Assembly (NCBI GenBank): GCA_010356995.1
Contig: ML996693.1
Span: 1,054,001 to 1,118,000 of the forward strand
DNA length: 64,000 bases
Direction of reading: 5' to 3'
Source of the DNA: Trichodelitschia bisporula
Lineage: Eukaryota
Of this stretch, positions 25,187 through 43,043 are shown one piece after another. Below the pieces are notes generated by a model, which did not search any database, was not told the DNA's origin, and worked only from the letters and a program-made list of their open reading frames with translations. Position 1 is the stretch's first letter; each line of letters starts with the position of its first letter. The position numbers and the translations under genes are program-made.

Positions 25187-27485
25187 TCAAGACCCAAAAC
25201 CCAGTCCCCGGACCTCCTCATCATCCTTCAACGCCAAAACAATCTCATCATCCCCAACCCCCAACCTCACCCTCCTCGCCCTCTCCCCCCTCCTCGCCTC
25301 AACCCCCACAATCCCCGCCTCCGCCAGCCCCGTCAGCGCCGCCTCCATCCCCAGCACCCGCGGCGCCGCAGTCGGCGCCTTCTTAGTACGCCGCGGCGTC
25401 GCTCCCACCGCAGGCGCCTTCTCCGTCCCCTCCCCAAGTAGAATCTCATGCACCCCCGCAAGCTGCGACATGATACCCAGATTCCGCGCCTCATCCAACA
25501 CATCCCCAACCAGCGCCTCGCCGATCCCCGTCCTCCGCACCCGCGCCAGCAACGCCGCGAGGAACACCTTCGCCGCAAGCGGCAGCGCGCGCAGGCACTG
25601 CTGCAGCGGCGAGGACGTGGCTTCCGCGATCGCGGCCTTGATTGTGGCGATCGTGACAATGCCCTCGCGCGCGGGGCGCTTCAGCACGAGCTCGGGCTTG
25701 TTGCGGCCCGATTTACTCGGTGTGCCGGGGGCATCGGGGCCAGCGGCTGCGTTGGCCATGGCTTCCGCCTCAGCGAGCTCGACAGCGCGGCGGCAGATGT
25801 CGAGCGCGCGCCGCGCGTCGCCCGACACAGCAGCCACCTTACGGGAGGCGAACTGCACGGCGTCCGGGTGGACGATGTTGCCCGGCACATTGGCTAAGCG
25901 GGACTCGATGATTTGCATGAGTTGGGCGTGGGTGTAGCCCTTGAAGGTGATGCGGTGGAGGCCGAGACGGGAGGAGATTTTGTTGCTCAGCGTGCGCTCG
26001 GGGAGATCCATTGTGTTGGCGACGGCGAGCACGATCAGCCGGCTGTGCCGCAGACCCGGCCAGTTGAAGAAGTTGTACATGACGGATTGGTTTTTGGTTA
26101 CGAGTTGGTCGAGCTCGTCCATTAGGACGACGCAGGGGACTCGGCGCGGGCTCGGGGCGGAGAATTCGCGCTCGAGGAGGTCGAGGGCGTGGCTCGGGGA
26201 GACGCGGTCACCGCGGAGGGCTTCCCAGAGGAGGGAGTAGGATTGGTGGGGGTCGGTGACTTTCATGCCGTTGATTTCGACGAATATGAAGTCGTCGAGC
26301 TCTTCGGCGAGCACGGAGGCGTTCAGTTGAGCGACTACTTCGCGTACCGTCGCTGTTTTTCCTGTCCCGGGTGTGCCTGCGATGTAGATGCAAGAGCCGG
26401 TGCCATCGGTGATGGCCTTCTCCAGGTGTGAGTATACTTCGGCGAATTCGTCTTCGCGGCAGGGGAGCGAGGCTGGGACGGACGAGACGTGGAGCTGGTT
26501 GCGGGCGATCTGGTGCGGTGATGCGAGGACCTCCGGGGCCAGCACGCGCGTACCCAGAGGCGTGAATTCGAGCGGCTTCTTGACGACGATACGCTTGTGC
26601 GTAGGTGTTAGAAACTTGCGCGGGCTGAGATCCTTGAGGTCCTTCCGCCGGGAGGGTGTGACCGCATCTATCTTCCGGCGCTTCTTGGGCGTCTTGGGCT
26701 CGCCATCTTCATCGTCTTGGACGACAAAGTCGGTAACGCCGGCTTTGGCTGGCCCACGGCCTTTGCGGGTTGCCTTTGTTTGGCTCTTTACCAGGTCAAT
26801 CAAGTCGGGGATGTTGTCAAAGCCTTGGTAGACGTCTTCCCAGATGAACTCGTCGGTGTAGGTGGCCGTCCGCGTGTTGCAACCCCGCCGACAGACGAAA
26901 TATTTACCGTAGTGCTGCGAGTTCCGGGGAACGACGCCCTTGGGATACTTCTTCGCAAAATATTCCGGTGACACAACGTAAGCCTTCCCGTTGATGGTAG
27001 TCAGGGGGTTGTCGTCCCATGATGGCGAGATGTACAGTTCGTTCTGGACAATGTTAGACGGACAGAGAAAGTGGCATTGAACTTACGGGCAATGCATCCA
27101 TCCGTCTCTTCTGTTTATTGCGAATCTCGCTGGGTGATGCGAACCACATAAAGTTCGCCAACTTTTCGCCGGACTCCTCATCGTCAAAAAGGTGGCATAT
27201 AAGCCCAACCCATGCTTCGCCACCACTCTCGGCTTTCAGCAGTACCGTGTCTCCCAGCCGGCACTCAAACTTGCCCATCCGCGCGCCAACAGGCTGTTTT
27301 TGAGCATCTCCGGCCTTTCGCTTTTTGCTGGGAGTTTTCTGCTGCACATCGTCATCCTCGGGGTAGATCCACTCCCAAGGAAGATCCTCATCGCCGAGCT
27401 CGTCATCCGAGTCCTCGCGGACTACGGCACCGGTCTTGAGGTATTGCTTAGCCTTCTCGATCTTTGTCTTTTTGCGTCCGGGCAT
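25187..27485 (-). CDS. ORC1: Origin recognition complex subunit 1; intron 27044-27086
   Basis: N-terminal BAH domain (LGDTVLLKAE..WVGLI..FMWF), LHVSSVPASLPCRE, Walker A GTPGTGKT, Walker B VLMDELD, AVANTMDLPER, SGDARRALDICRRA. Confidence 0.96.
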
Positions 27486-27556
27486 GGCTGCGTGTTGAGG
27501 GGCTCAATATCACGGGGTGTCTAGTTAAGGAATTATGCCGACTCCTTAATCGATAG

Positions 27557-29794: not shown

Positions 29795-30262
29795 TCAAGC
29801 CGCCACCCTCGCTACATTCAAAAAGAACCGTCCCAACCACCCCACCCCGGCCCACCAAACCGCCGTCCTCAAATGGCCTGTCGCCTGCGTCCCGCCCGTA
29901 ACATACACTACCGCATGAAGAGCCCTCAACCCAAACCACCCCTTGATAAAGCCCATCAACTCCGCATGCCCCACGCCCGCCCACAACCCCGCCAGCACGG
30001 CCGCGACATACAGTGGAAGCGTTTCATGCGCGTTGGCAGTGGCGGCCTCGGCGCGCTCCCAGCGCGCGAAGATGTGGGGAGGCAGGGATGATTGGAGGTG
30101 TGACCGGAAGGAGGAGGACCGGGGTGAGGAATTGTCGAGAGTGGAGAGAGGGAGGGGGCCGCGCGCGAGGTGCATGGCGTAGACGTGGGGGAGGAGGCTG
30201 AAGATGTGATAGGCGGGGATGGAGAGAAGGGGGATGTTGTAGGCGGAGAGGAGGGAGGCCAT
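29795..30262 (-). CDS. MAPEG-family membrane protein
   Basis: Starts MASLLSAYNIPLLSIPAY; contains DNSSPR, ERAEAATANAHETLPLYVAAVLAG, RALHAVVYV, LRTAVWW, matching the MAPEG pattern. Confidence 0.8.
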   Translation of the reverse strand: MASLLSAYNIPLLSIPAYHIFSLLPHVYAMHLARGPLPLSTLDNSSPRSSSFRSHLQSSLPPHIFARWERAEAATANAHETLPLYVAAVLAGLWAGVGHAELMGFIKGWFGLRALHAVVYVTGGTQATGHLRTAVWWAGVGWLGRFFLNVARVAA

Positions 30263-30993
30263 GGTGGAGGGTTCTTGGGGGGAGAAGGTTGTGCTGAGGA
30301 ATGGGTGGGTCGCGCGGTGTTGATTTTGTGAGCTACATTCGAGGGATGGGGAGCTCTTAAAAAGCGGCGATGCTGACGTGAGGCGGCCCCCCAGACAACG
30401 TTCCGGTGCGCGGGCCGGACAAATGATTAGTTCCGCCTCCGTCGAAGCGCGGCGCAATGCTGCTGTACCGGTAAATACGCATTCGTAGTGGACGCCAAGG
30501 ATCGGCTTTTGTTCCGAGTCGGGTTATTAATCTGTCCTGCGCTCTGACTTGCGGGCCGGGAGGGCTTAACCTTACCCGCGTCGCTTGGCAGCCTTGCATG
30601 TCCTGCACTCCGAGGGCGGCTTGATTCCGTGTTGGACAGGCGAATCGGAAGTGGGATGGGGAGTGTGTACAATGCGGAATTGGAGGTGAGGGCTGATGTC
30701 TGCCTTTATTCTTTGGCGTGGAGCGGAGGGCGATGGGGCAGTGGACTTCCGCCGTATCGTTCATGTCGGACGAGATCAGGACGAGCGGCGGCTGGCAGCA
30801 GAAAGCAGATCCGATTCATATAGACACGACACGCTCACCACGAGAGCCATGTCGTAACCATCCTTCAAGTCTCCAACTCAGGTCCCCACCCCATCCCCCA
30901 CCTCCCCAATTCCCCACCCGCATCAACCCCCTCACCTCCCGCCCTACACGCAGTTAGCCATTCCCCTCCCCAGAAAAAACAGGGAATACTCAT

Positions 30994-32700
30994 AAAAAAT
31001 GGCCCCCCGCCATCCCCTCAAGAACAGTAGGAGCAGGTACCAGACAAAAAATTAACCGCGCGCACCTCCCCCCTCCCAACACACCCACCACCCCTCCCCC
31101 CAACCCCTGCCTTCCCCACCCAGCCTCCCCGCCGAAGTTACCTACCCACACGTCATCAACACGGGAACCCCGCAGCTGAGCCTAGGCCCGCTAAACCGAC
31201 TCCCTTCCACCTTGACACGCTGGCAGCCCGTACGCGCAGACAAGCCGGGGCTTTGAACACCGCGGGGCGGGTTCCCGCGTGAACGGCTGGGGTTCCAGTG
31301 GCTTTGGTAGAGAGGGGGACGGGGAGCGGGTACCTGGCTTCAGCGCGCGGGGCCGCTCAGCGCGGGGCGTTTGACCTCGCAGTGCGGTTTGGCTGTCAGG
31401 GTCGGTGGGGGGGCGGGAACAGAGGCGTAGACACGTGGTTCGGGCTTCGGTACGACGCAATGTCCGCAGGACATAAATGCATCTCCGCGCATCTCGCAGC
31501 TTCCCTCCAAACGTGCATCTCCGTTGCAGGGCTAGGCCCGTACCGCAAGATCTCCCACCCAGTGCTGGACTCTCTGTTGTGTCGCATGCCCCTCGGAGAT
31601 GGGTCTTTGGTTTCCGTTCAGCCGCGCGCGTGCGCAACCGTCAGGCAAAGGCGGACAAAGGACGTCTGGGAAAACCGCTTGTGGCCGTGCCTAGCGGCAC
31701 GGCGTTCGGCGCTTGACGCCTCGGGCGGGGCCGGAGGCGGCGATTAACGCGGGTGGTCTGGCATCCCCCATGGGGGACGGCGCTGGTAGCGGGTGCTGGG
31801 GCGCTGGCGCGGGAAGCAAGCCCGCGAAGATGAGGGGGGGAAACGGGACCCGGGATCGAACAAGTCGATCCCGAGAAAGGAGACGTGCGGGTGTCTTCGC
31901 CAGAGGGTGGAATCCGGGTTGCATCGGCAGGTCGTTGTGTCCGGGGACGGTTGGTTTTGCTCAAGCTCTGCTGCTGGACTCCGACGAACCCTGGTTTTCG
32001 CAAAGGGCAGCAGGATATCAGACTTCCGGGGCGTGGCGACAAGTCGATGCTGATGAACGGGGTACCGGTTTCCCGGGCCCACCATCTGAGGTCAGACTAC
32101 GTCGCGCCCGTCTTCAACCACTTGAGCCAGTGCGCTAGACCAGGTGACCGGGCCTGAGGGCTGCGGTCCAGAGCAGAGCGAGCGCCACCAACCGCCGTCC
32201 GGCGAGCCTGGAATCCGATATACGCAACCCGTAGATCTGGCGACCGCAAATCCAGTCCCTCAGCTCATGAAGATCCCAAAGACACTCCCCAAAAAACAGG
32301 GCGTCCGACGTCCCCCACCTGGATCCTCCTCATCTTCGCAGGCAGCTTCATCCAACGCTGCCAATCATGACCGAGTCACATATGCCGGACAGAAAAAGCC
32401 GACGCTCGCCTCTTCGAGGCATCCCATGGCAATCTCCATCCACACGGCGCCCTAACCGGGGTTGGGCACTTCGTCGGGCCGCACAGAGCACGACACCCGG
32501 CAGCCCTTCGAACGCGCTTAGTTCCCGGAAAGGACAACTCGAGAGCCCGCGAGGCTGGACCGGGGAATGGCTAGGGTTAAGTTCCGAATCCTTTTTCGTC
32601 CCCAGCGCGGCGCAGCGGTGTGACCCGCTGCAGACATCGCGCTGGTTAGTGGACGAAAGGGAACGGCGCACTTTGGGGAGGGGGGGGTGCGTGGTTCTGT
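30994..32700 (-). ncRNA. TER: Putative telomerase RNA (TER), ~1.7 kb; 5' end approximate
   Basis: Template UAACCCUA (32579-32572) directly 3' of a long hairpin (32664-32581). 5'/3' closing inverted repeat (32673-32696 with 31054-31079). Sm site AAUUUUUUG (31053-31045). Terminal intron AUGAGU..GCUAAC..UAG (30993-30944). No credible ORF. Confidence 0.85.
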
Positions 32701-33229
32701 GTGTTGAGAGCGGCGGCTGGGTGGGAGATGATGCGGTGAGAGACCAGGGTGCAACTTCGACGATGGGGCGGGGAGGAGCTGGGTGGTGAGATGGCGGTGG
32801 TGATGCGTATGGGGGGAGAGGGTTGGTGGTTGCGGAATGGTTTTAAGGGATGCGGGCACGCGACGCGTCGGGGCTTGGCAAACATGCGCCAAGATGGAAG
32901 CCGCGAACGTTCGATGTGGCGTCTGAAGTCCATCGCGAGCATGTGATACGGTATGTATCGGCGAAGGAAAGTAACTAACGACTCAAGTTGTTGTTTGATG
33001 ATAGTACAACGAAGTTCGTCATCATCGCCCCACAATACTGTACTACGTAGATGCCACAAACTCAAAATTCCCACTGATAAGGTTATCCTCTGCTCCGTCA
33101 ATCTCCACCAACTGAACTTGTCAAAGTAATCCCCCATCTTCACCATCGCGGTTGCAGAACTGAAAGAAGCCTTATCGCCCCGCGACACATCATAACGCCA
33201 CTTACGCTCTGTCGACGGGACCCGACATC

Positions 33230-36200
33230 ATGGAAGTAGACTCGGCCTCGCCAGAACCCTCAGGTGTGACGCCGCAGGAAGCAATCTCCAAAGCAGAAGC
33301 CTTTCTGGAGCCGGCGCTTGCCTACGGTAAGTATCGAAATACATCCGCATCAGGAATTTAACACGCCGTAGCCCGCCAGCATCCCGATCAGACCACGAGC
33401 ATCAGCTCCCGTCTTGCCAACGATGAGCTAGCACAGCGCGAGGCCCTCGAGCACGCATGTCAACATCTCACCGCCATTCACCAAAGCCTCTTAGATGCGC
33501 AGCGGATGGGGAGCAAGCAAGTCTACGACTCCACCCTCCTGACCACCGTGTACTCCCTCATCGACTTCATCCTCCTGGAAGCCCTCTACCCGAGACTCCC
33601 CGAGGGCGCTGGTAACCCCCTCGAGCTCCGCAAACGGGCTTTGTTCTGGAAGTCCATGGACCGGAACTACACGGTCCCTCCCGACAATGGCACCTTCTAT
33701 GATGCCATCCGCGCTTTCCGCCAAATTACGCGCAGCATAGGCGAAGGCCTTGAGCCCCTACTGCGGAACCGTGCGCTGAAGCACATCATCGTACTAGATG
33801 CCTTCCTGATCCTGTCGCGTAATGACTGGGAGCAGTTGGTTGGAACGGCATGCTCGTTCAGCGACTACATAGTCGCGCTCCCCACGGACGCACTGATGAC
33901 AGAAATGTCCGCCCTAGTAAAAGCGAATGCACCGTCCTGGCTGAAGAACCCTCTCACTTCCTCCCTCTCCCATCTCCCCCTCCGCCCCGATGGCGTCCGC
34001 AGCGTCTTCGAGTATCTCGCACGCGCGCGGCACAGACCCAACACGCAGCCGGAAACTGACATCCCCACCCCCTCCAAAGGCCCAACCTTCACCCTCGAAG
34101 TCCTCCAAGACGCAGCCCGTCTCCTCTCCTCCGTCCCCTCAACCATGACCGCAAAAACTTGGCTCGCGGGCATTGGGCCGCAACTCTTCGCCCTTCTCGA
34201 CGCTGGCGGCGACATGAGCAAGGCGGCAGCTTACGTCATCGTCTTCGGGATTCTGTCCAAGAAAGCCCTCGGCGCAAGCAATGCCCCCGGCTGGACCACC
34301 TTCGCTCTCCCAATCCGCGACGCGCTGTACCCGACCGCGCCCCTGGAGCGCTCCCCCCCAGACCTCTCGGACCTAGAGCCCGTCGTCGTCCCGGAGGCCA
34401 CGCTACACACGGCACTAAGGCGCCTCTTGACCCTCGTGCATTCCCACCCTCACCCAGCCGTCGCAAAGCGGCTAGTCGGCATGTGCCGCGGGCCCCTCTG
34501 GGCCATTGCCGCATACGACAAATCGCCTGTCGTAGCAGCGCAGTGGTCCGACCTCGCACTCCGCCTGTTGGCGCGCTACATTAGCCTATTCCCCGACTCA
34601 GACCCTCTGCTCAACGTCTTCGACAGCATGCTGTGGGACGGTGCCGCGGAATGGGAATTCGCCCCCGGTGACCAAGGCGGGATAGCAATCCGCGTCCGCA
34701 CGCCGGAGGGGAATATCAATCTTGAAGCCCTGCAGGAGAAGATCGAGCGGCGCATCGGATCGTTCCTTAAGCTTGTGGAGGCGCTGCAGCTTGATGCGCA
34801 GAAGATGGCGGAGCTCCTCCTCGCCATAACGCGACGCTGGCTAAGTGCGGAGCACAGGGAGGGCAAGTCGCCGATTCAAAACCTCGCCCGGACTGCCCTC
34901 GCGCAAGCCCTGCTCGAGAAGCACCTCGCGCTGCTCTCCAGCTCGCCCATCCAAGCGCTCACATTTATCTCCTCGCTGCTGCGCATCCTGGGCGACCAAC
35001 CGGCGCCGAGCGACCCAGCGCTGCTGATGCAGCCCGAAAGTCCAGCGTATGCGAATATTATCTCTGATTGGCCCGAGGACCCCTCCAAGGAAGCCCTCGT
35101 GGAGCAGCGAGAGGACATGATGTTCACGGCACTGAGTGTCATGAACGCCGTACTTGCGGCGCCGCTGCCTGTAGACCCGAAGTTGGAGACCACACTCAAA
35201 GACATCGAGGATAACATGCGCCGCGCCTGGAATATGCCGTACCGTCTGCAGTGGAGCGCCCGCATCACCAACACCATCAAGCGCCTGTCCGCCCTCCGCG
35301 AAAAGCTAAACACTACACAGACCCCCACCGCCCCGCCTTACACCAAGCCCTCCTTCCTCGAATCCCTCCCCTCAATCCGTACCCAGCTCTCCAGCGACCA
35401 ACCACCCATCCGCCGCTCCGCCCTCGCAACCCTAGACTCACTCCTCACCCCAGAAGCCAATCCCGACACCCAGCTAGCAGCCACCCTCCTGACCTCCCTC
35501 CTCCTCTCCGAACCAGAAAGCTTCGTCTACCTCCCCGGCATCAGCTCCCTCCGGCGCCTCGCCTCTCTCGATCCCCGGCGCGCGGCCAACACGCTCGTCG
35601 ACGCCCTGTCCGACCCCTCGGAAGCAGGCTCCGTCGACGGGCGCTTGCGCGTCGCTGAGGCGCTCATCGCCGTCGTCCCGGTCCTCGCTGGGAGCACGGA
35701 GGGCAGGCTCGCGATCCCGCACGTCGCTGAAGTGGCGATTAAGGTTGCGGGTAGGCGCGGGCGTCGCGAACGCGAGGCGTCCGAGCGGGTTAAGGCGGAG
35801 CGGTTGGCGCGGCGGAAGCGCAAGGAGGCGGAGCGGGCGTGGGGCGGGGAGGTGCCTGAGGTTCCAGACCTGGAGGACGGGTATGAGGAGGAGGAAGGTG
35901 AGGCTGCGAGGGAAAAGCGCAGGAGAGAGATAGAGGCTATTCAGCGCATTGTGCGTGGCTGGGAGGACACGGGGTTTGAGGAGGATGTGAGGGTGCGGGC
36001 GAGCGCGTTGGGCGTGCTGGCTGGCGTGTTTGAGAATGGGGGAGGCGGTGGGGTGGTTGGAAGTGCGGTCGATCTTGTGCTTAGCGTGCTGGTTATTGAG
36101 ACGGGGACTGAAAGGGCGGTGCTAAGGCGTGCTGCGGCGATGGTGCTGCTTGGGCTGGTGAATGGGATGGACGGGGCGTATAAACGGGGCGAACAGCCGT

Positions 36201-36451
36201 ACGTTCTAGCGGCGGAGAAGTGGTCTGAGGTAAGGCGGGTGGTGGAGTGGGTAAGCGCGGAGGATGGAGACGATGTTGTAAGGGACCATGCGGAGACGGT
36301 GAAGGAGAATTTGGAAGCGGTGGCGATGATAGGGGTTTTGGCTGAGGGGGAGATGGAGAGGAGGAGAGTGGAGGAGTTTGGGAAGGAGGGGTTGAGGGGG
36401 TTGAGCCTAGGGGAGAGTGGGGGTAGAGCGGGGATTGAGGAGGTTGAGTAG
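33230..36451 (+). CDS. RTP1: RNA polymerase II assembly/nuclear import factor Rtp1 (TANGO6 homolog); intron 33327-33371
   Basis: ARM/HEAT-like ~1050-aa protein with LPLRPDGVRSVFE, WEFAPGDQGGIAIR, ESFVYL, DGRLRVAEAL, DVRVRASALGVL, VLRRAAAMV. ATG 33230 plus a GTAAGT..TAG intron joins in frame to the long ORF. Confidence 0.85.
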
Positions 36452-42943: not shown

Positions 42944-43043
42944 GGCAAGGTGGCCGAGTTGGTTAAGGCGTCAGGTTAAGGTCTCCCTTAGCAACAATAT
43001 CCTGATTCAGAAATGAGCACGAGTTCGAATCTCGTCCTTGTCA
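42944..43043 (+). tRNA. tRNA-Leu(AAG) with ~18-nt intron
   Basis: GGCAAGG/CCTTGTC acceptor stem; A box TGGCCGAGTTGG; anticodon stem TCAGG/CCTGA with loop TT-AAG-G; intron after position 37 containing CCTTA; long variable arm; B box GAGTTCGAATC; T-run terminator ~43057. Confidence 0.93.

Follow-up and report, generated by a model that had tools for sequence, protein, structure and literature searches.

A helix at the predicted template boundary of a telomerase RNA locus in Trichodelitschia bisporula

A long hairpin lies beside a telomere-like octamer in a 64,000-nt stretch of the Trichodelitschia bisporula genome (hereafter the window, the whole stretch that was analysed; C7:1054001-1118000 of a 25.8-Mb genome in 44 contigs), which raises the question of whether it serves the fungus's telomerase RNA (TER) as template boundary element (TBE) and, if so, which strands pair at its base. 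An earlier note on this DNA had taken the hairpin for such an element and had placed the helix base at GUUCC(32664-60)/GGAAC(32585-81). The analysis described below makes it very probable that the hairpin is indeed the TBE, and the reading of the locus as a TER, one that Rfam does not detect, is well supported. The base of the helix, though, appears to pair in a different register. All positions are those of the window.

The hairpin and the conserved pairing at its base

The four nested pairs of arms (32581-32664) described in the earlier note are exact reverse complements at the coordinates it had given, and its 6-nt hairpin loop was likewise borne out. As minus-strand RNA, the 84 nt of 32581-32664 fold to -42.8 kcal/mol (z = -5.13), a stability that none of 200 shuffled sequences equalled. 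Furthermore, among 2094 GC-matched windows of 93 nt (step 20, both strands, 64 kb) only the two strands of the hairpin locus attained -47.3 kcal/mol or less. The exact arms, the shuffle z-score and the window scan together indicate that the hairpin is real and unusual. The plus strand folds likewise (z = -4.53), so that the hairpin by itself does not give the strand. In eight folds of the minus strand, the three inner helices formed with pair probabilities near 1, lower values (0.44-0.97) being confined to the two or three outermost pairs of TTTCGTCC/GGACGAAA, whereas the basal GUUCC/GGAAC stem did not hold: its probability was about 0.5 when the fold was cut at 32664, and 0.00-0.01 in the seven other folds, all of which take in sequence upstream of 32664.

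Homologues were sought by scanning metagenome contigs with a motif for the TER three-way junction, which gave 73 loci. In 22 of these, GGAAC plus template occur 1.3-1.7 kb upstream (14 distinct); at 10 further loci the junction context is present and the contig ends upstream. The remaining 41 were dropped as unrelated; 19 of them are the same repeat within a single data set, and two have a template-like match over 2 kb away and no junction context. At L057 and at 18 further loci from a single metagenome, the P6.1 pattern is matched by a repeated element that frequently lies close to a contig end; its copies have identical flanks and lack TER context. The 14 homologues, from about 8-9 lineages, share 41-49% identity with the T. 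bisporula RNA across the core; used entire as a blastn query against them, this RNA returned short matches only. In their single-sequence folds, the 3′ strand paired with an upstream AGU-(2-3 nt)-CCG strand. A pattern for this strand, written after seeing those folds, has exactly one site in 14 of the 15 sequences, including 32672-32664 in T. bisporula, and in the fifteenth (L066) the strand was placed by eye. Windows cut around this anchor were aligned with MAFFT as input to RNAalifold.

The pairing homologous to that of the other fungi is AGU(32672-70)/ACU(32582-80) together with CCG(32666-64)/CGG(32586-84), reaching beyond the 5′ coordinate of the earlier note, and it is 3.4 kcal/mol more stable here than GUUCC/GGAAC. 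Over the 15 sequences, AGU/ACU and the 12 main-helix pairs are paired in 88.1% of 219 cells, with changes on both sides in 8 of the 15 pairs (27 cells; covariation score 0.369), whereas slid controls of this register gave 24.6-50.7%. None of 500 shuffles reached it on four of five measures, and one did so on the fifth, statistics that ignore relatedness among the 15 sequences. GUUCC/GGAAC, by comparison, is paired in 58.1% of 74 cells, a value exceeded by a slid control (up to 60.8%), and is fully paired in T. bisporula alone (1/15). Compensatory changes in orthologues, proposed in the earlier note as a check, are therefore seen in the main helix (8/12 pairs) but not in the basal stem of that note (0/5), and what stands is the broader claim of a template-adjacent helix at the TBE position of a fungal TER, kept in homologues with compensatory changes.

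The basal AGU/ACU pairs form in 13, 15 and 15 of the 15 sequences and show no compensatory change (0/3 pairs), an invariance that is partly built in, because the homologue patterns contained GGAAC and an AGT anchor. From the sequence-only alignment, RNAalifold gave the main helix in the AGU..CCG register but left the AGU/ACU base unpaired. When the arms were folded singly, the basal G-C pair had a probability of 0.48-0.96 in all 15 sequences, against 0.00 for the GUUCC/GGAAC register.

Helix 2 of the earlier note (32658-51/32601-32594) is the upper part of the conserved helix; in 8 of the 15 sequences, its equivalent forms at least 7 of the 8 pairs (7-8; best of four shifts). The T. bisporula main helix is interrupted by mismatches directly above CCG/CGG, and its 3′ strand is 2 nt longer. 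The GGAACTTAACCCTA of this 3′ strand is also present in the A. clavatus TER. The apical arm is species-specific, and the whole arm, at 87 nt, is the shortest of the 15 (96-207 nt in the homologues). A 20-nt hairpin, GAGCCYYAYARCAYGGUCUC, is kept in the TBE arm of 9 of the 14 homologues (L059, L067, L070, L073, L091, L092, L099, L121 and L123; alignment A1, columns 136-154), with a variant in L102. It is conserved although the remainder of the arm diverges, and is absent from the T. bisporula window; a resemblance of the T. bisporula apical loop to half of this motif was rejected as not beyond shuffles (p = 0.07-0.17).

Table 1. Features of the locus in window coordinates
Feature	Position	Strand	Basis
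Telomerase RNA (TER) gene, about 1.8 kb	30994..32820	minus	Element order and spacing against the Aspergillus alignment; 14 homologues
ACGCGTCGCG motif upstream of TER	32859..32869	minus	Identical with an Aspergillus TER block labelled 'Promoter?'
5′ strand of core-enclosing helix 1 (partner 31586-31583)	32688..32691	minus	Duplex fold
5′ strand of core-enclosing helix 2 (partner 31594-31589)	32678..32683	minus	Duplex fold
Boundary helix base, true 5′ strand: AGU (32672-70), 3 unpaired bases, CCG (32666-64)	32664..32672	minus	Alignment with 14 homologues, pair counts, single-sequence fold
5′ strand continued: UCC (32662-60) with GGA (32591-89); helix 2 (32658-51) with 32601-32594	32651..32663	minus	Folds
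Apical arm (helices 3 and 4 of the earlier note, 6-nt loop)	32602..32645	minus	Pair probability about 1
Boundary helix 3′ strand, end CGG-A-ACU adjoining the template	32580..32601	minus	Homologue alignment, pair counts
Template UAACCCUA, predicts TTAGGG repeats	32572..32579	minus	Position, motif
Pseudoknot CS3 (PK1 5′ strand, U-rich tract, PK2 5′ strand, PK1 3′ strand)	31646..31681	minus	8 homologues, Aspergillus CS3
Pseudoknot CS4 (PK2 3′ strand, 31611-31597) and core-enclosing 3′ strands	31583..31615	minus	Alignment
CR4/5-type three-way junction (P5, P6, P6.1 at 31253-31242)	31233..31281	minus	Fold, consensus fold of 17 sequences
U tract (Sm-like) at the predicted 3′ end of the mature RNA	30994..31005	minus	Aspergillus Sm site (accessible text)
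Terminal intron: AUGAGU (30993-88), GCUAACU branch site (30958-52), 3′ UAG (30946-44)	30944..30993	minus	Motif match
MAPEG-family ORF (stop to stop), downstream neighbour	29795..30523	minus	PF01124
RTP1-like gene, divergent upstream neighbour, intron 33326-33370	33230..36451	plus	PF10363, PF10304

Template, boundary and proposed mechanism

The template UAACCCUA has UA at both ends, that is, a 2-nt alignment region, and comprises 8 nt plus a possible G·T wobble at G32571. Its mean unpaired probability is 0.90 in the local fold, and lower in some whole-RNA folds, which lack the pseudoknot. A telomere-sense octamer (32458-32451) tried as a partner for the template was rejected, with a pair probability of about 0.02. 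The ninth template position is G in T. bisporula, as in L063 and L103, whereas L066 has U there and 10 others have A, and the template of L056 is shifted; not being A in 4 of the 15 TERs, this position leaves them a 2-nt Watson-Crick alignment region. From the 2-nt region and the possible wobble a lower processivity would be predicted, so that the locus offers a natural short-alignment template whose processivity is predictable and can be tested. In N. crassa, a longer alignment region increased repeat-addition processivity 2- to 3-fold (PMC3592445). A telomere array was absent from all 88 ends of the 44 contigs (300-400 bases each), and the template can therefore not be matched to a telomere here; a 29-base telomere repeat pattern had no match in the genome, and the longest TTAGGG run, of four copies, is internal. 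Short TTAGGG runs at C1:1999726, C1:2010218, C6:1378605-1388065, C11:12883, C12:950392 and C19:696164 lie no more than about 35 kb from several contig ends and are possibly subtelomeric.

In the pairing of the earlier note, base 32580 alone separates the stem end from the template-like UAACCCUA. This distance of 1 nt is kept, in that G32671-C32581 is the last firm pair, but the partner strand is a different one. With all three basal pairs formed the gap is 0 nt, and it becomes 1 nt if the terminal A-U pair (probability 0.23 in a 401-nt fold) frays; were CCG/CGG alone formed, the helix would end 4 nt from the template. A further pair, A32673-U32579, would reach into the template; only one of the 15 sequences has a Watson-Crick pair at this place, and its probability is about 0.2.

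We propose that a long arm of the minus-strand RNA (32672-32580) would close directly 5′ of the template, its base being made of the 3-bp AGU/ACU helix, a 3x1 internal loop and CCG/CGG beneath a long upper stem. Since the 3-bp base is conserved but does not covary, it may be a sequence recognised by protein and not a stable helix. By analogy with other fungi, TERT would copy 3′-AUCCCAAU-5′ and add TTAGGG repeats, and the paired RNA, probably held by TERT, would bar the next bases from the active site, so that no copying would proceed beyond U32579. The position of the helix, and what is reported for other fungi, suggest that reverse transcription would stop there; we likewise infer expression as a discrete RNA, binding of TERT, the stop position and the repeat made. 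According to a review (PMC4993307), which covers both types, fungal TBEs are stable helices directly 5′ of the template and act through pairing or TERT binding.

The second of these modes underlies the alternative that survives best, which we regard as unlikely without dismissing it: the arm would be structural, and the stop would be set mainly by TERT on GGAAC or by the tether of the core-enclosing helices rather than by pairing. It would fit the basal pairs, which are invariant rather than covarying. Moreover, the U-motif of fungal TERT has been proposed to engage the TBE (PMC8096264, accessible part), and no read-through test of a Pezizomycotina TBE was found in the accessible parts of the literature searched. 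However, strong covariation is seen in the main helix, which lies 4 nt from the template, and pairing-based boundaries have been reported for yeasts (PMC4993307, same part). This alternative agrees with the TBE reading on identity and differs on mechanism only.

A combined model, which we offer as speculation and would not expect to hold in full, is that the filamentous-fungal TBE has a two-part base, in which an invariant AGU/ACU mini-helix and bulge, read by TERT through their sequence, lie beneath the covarying helix, and that in homologues with the 20-nt hairpin the arm tip carries an accessory-protein site. In T. bisporula the mini-helix could gain one more pair inside the template, which at 8 nt is already short; the boundary would then be flexible, processivity would be low and the repeat ends would be mixed. 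Such a base may be likened to that of ciliate helix II, which is read by TERT.

Alternatively, the element could be a TBE whose base has switched to the GUUCC/GGAAC register in this species, or alternates between registers. The five perfect pairs available only here, together with a 3′ strand longer by 2 nt and a helix broken above CCG/CGG, could favour such a shift, and Aspergillus has a UUCYC-like 5′ strand opposite GGGAA. Yet GUUCC/GGAAC is the weaker pairing by the margin given above, its probability falls to 0.01 or less once 32665-32672 are included, its pair counts are no better than those of slid controls and come with no compensatory change, and the AGU..CCG strand persists in T. bisporula, as far from the core-enclosing helix as in the homologues. 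We consider a register switch quite improbable. Since the homologue register is AGU..CCG, the mutagenesis proposed in the earlier note is aimed at the wrong 5′ strand. No account of this register or of the arm-tip hairpin was found in the literature covered, outside which lay key published figures and one supplement.

The probable telomerase RNA gene and its surroundings

The minus strand was compared with a published alignment of 10 Aspergillus TERs (PMC3603654), and besides the hairpin six further TER elements were found on that strand, correctly ordered and spaced (Table 1). The 3′ end of the gene probably lies at the 5′ splice site, and its 5′ end is approximate. That template, pseudoknot, junction and 3′ signals follow the published order supports the reading of the locus as a TER with a TBE. 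A chance GC-rich hairpin, a transposon remnant or a pre-miRNA-like fold beside a telomere-like octamer, with no TER at all, is hardly credible: Rfam gave no telomerase family match for the window or the region, both strands fold alike and the 14-base boundary-template motif, with its one match in the genome, has three when reversed, so that one match is not rare, but those six elements stand against it, as do the 22 of 73 loci that were found by the junction motif alone and have a boundary-template match upstream. The weak, unrelated Rfam hits (best E 0.22) were taken as chance. The junction motif has one exact match in the genome and one with a mismatch, and its reversed control four. Because both patterns were built around this sequence and their reversed controls match, the evidence lies in co-location and order, not in rarity.

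The core-enclosing duplex (-16.5 kcal/mol here) is present in all 10 sequences in which CS4 was located, CS4 not having been located in 5 of the 15. CS3 (31681-31646) and CS4 (31615-31597) align with eight homologues and with Aspergillus; an early guess at the pseudoknot, at about 32340-32265, was dropped, as the Aspergillus alignment puts CS3 elsewhere. The junction folds as a three-way junction, with a z-score of only -0.71; in its consensus, the P6.1 columns were fixed by the search pattern and the P5 and P6 columns were free. P6.1 has a 4-bp stem and the loop CCCG, which is not NUNGN. The accepted A. terreus TER has CCAG in place of this loop, so that the NUNGN consensus is not strict for Pezizomycotina.

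At the 3′ end, a search for the U tract, splice site and branch site matched in 8 of the 14 homologues, with AUAAGU in seven and AUACGU in one. AU-type 5′ splice sites are described for Aspergillus TER 3′ processing in the accessible parts of PMC4299874 and PMC3603654. A second U tract with a GU dinucleotide (31031-31046) lies about 45 nt upstream of the tract adjoining AUGAGU and could, from its sequence, be an alternative Sm or splice site. On the 5′ side, the ACGCGTCGCG motif sits between the TER and the divergent RTP1-like gene; the sequence ACGCGT corresponds to an MCB cell-cycle box. ACGCG(T/A) occurs upstream in 7 of the 14 homologues, a count made without a chance control.

Contigs from two runs of one sample, which also skip the RTP1-like intron, cover 31092/31127 to 32826 or beyond, in unstranded data from a single study. 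Close to where the TER 5′ end is expected, run X4 has a contig ending at 32826 and another starting at 32798, no more than a weak hint; a single contig crosses 32798-32826 in run X3. The uncovered places near 30883-31091 fall in a low-complexity stretch that interrupts a DNA run too, and no use was made of them. The genome has one TERT RNA-binding domain (E = 8.3e-47; contig C1), within a 792-residue open frame in which we take reverse-transcriptase motifs to be recognisable.

A MAPEG gene also lies downstream of the TER in five metagenome loci (four distinct). The RTP1-like intron is skipped in runs X3 and X4 and not in X1 and X2. Searches with tblastn for RTP1, ORC1 and DUF7603 gave no match in the metagenome loci (flanks of 2.5 kb at most). 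The window also holds a minus-strand ORC1-like gene (25187-27503), 3.5 kb from the TER on its downstream side, and a tRNA gene (42944-43043) whose anticodon arm contains an insert that is probably an intron.

Comparison with known telomerase RNAs

The feature type is a known one: 73 filamentous-ascomycete TERs of the same architecture were reported in 2013, and the T. bisporula TER may already be in the species list of PMC3592445, of which part was accessible. What is added is an annotation of the TER and boundary helix for a previously unannotated gene, and a correction of the target strand for the obvious boundary experiment. Further gains are the covariation-backed register of the helix base and the conserved arm-tip hairpin of other fungi. 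The latter occupies the position at which Ku is bound in Saccharomyces TER and, if the speculative model above is true, would be an undescribed accessory-protein site.

Where it can be tested, the structure of the feature is that of a Pezizomycotina template-adjacent TBE, and it differs from the Aspergillus and Neurospora models in its split base, 8-nt template, CCCG P6.1 loop and AUGAGU splice site. With the TBE of Aspergillus and Penicillium (Kuprys et al. 2013, PMC3603654, accessible text) it has in common a template-adjacent helix closing a short arm, and GGAAC(U) before the template forms part of a 14-base identity, GGAAC-U-UAACCCUA, with A. clavatus. CS3/CS4, CS5/CS6, the Sm-like tract, the AU-type 5′ splice site and the GCUAAC branch site are also common to these fungi. 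However, the Aspergillus TBE is about 8 bp long and, in the same text, mostly 2 nt from the template, whereas here 3 bp, a 3x1 loop and CCG/CGG end 0-1 nt from it. The ninth template A is replaced by G, giving CCCUAG against the CCCUAA core of 13 Aspergilli (accessible text), and the 5′ splice site is AUGAGU instead of AUA(A/C)GU.

The accessible part of the Neurospora crassa study (Qi et al. 2013, PMC3592445) describes two core-enclosing helices, a TBE, the template start UAACCCUA, a pseudoknot and a P5/P6/P6.1 junction, all shared with the present locus; the U at the 5′ boundary, too, is the one used by N. crassa telomerase. On the other hand, its template is 9 nt long with a 3-nt alignment region, compared with 8 nt plus wobble here; its arm is longer than the 87-nt arm of T. 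bisporula, and nt 256-433 of it were deleted without loss of activity; and its P6.1 loop is a 5-nt NUNGN, as in vertebrates, against the 4-nt CCCG. The TBEs of Kluyveromyces, Saccharomyces and S. pombe (PMC4993307, accessible part) are, as here, template-adjacent helices at the base of an arm. A Ku-binding stem-loop is not evident at the arm tip in T. bisporula. The possible A32673-U32579 overlap resembles the template-overlapping helix of S. pombe.
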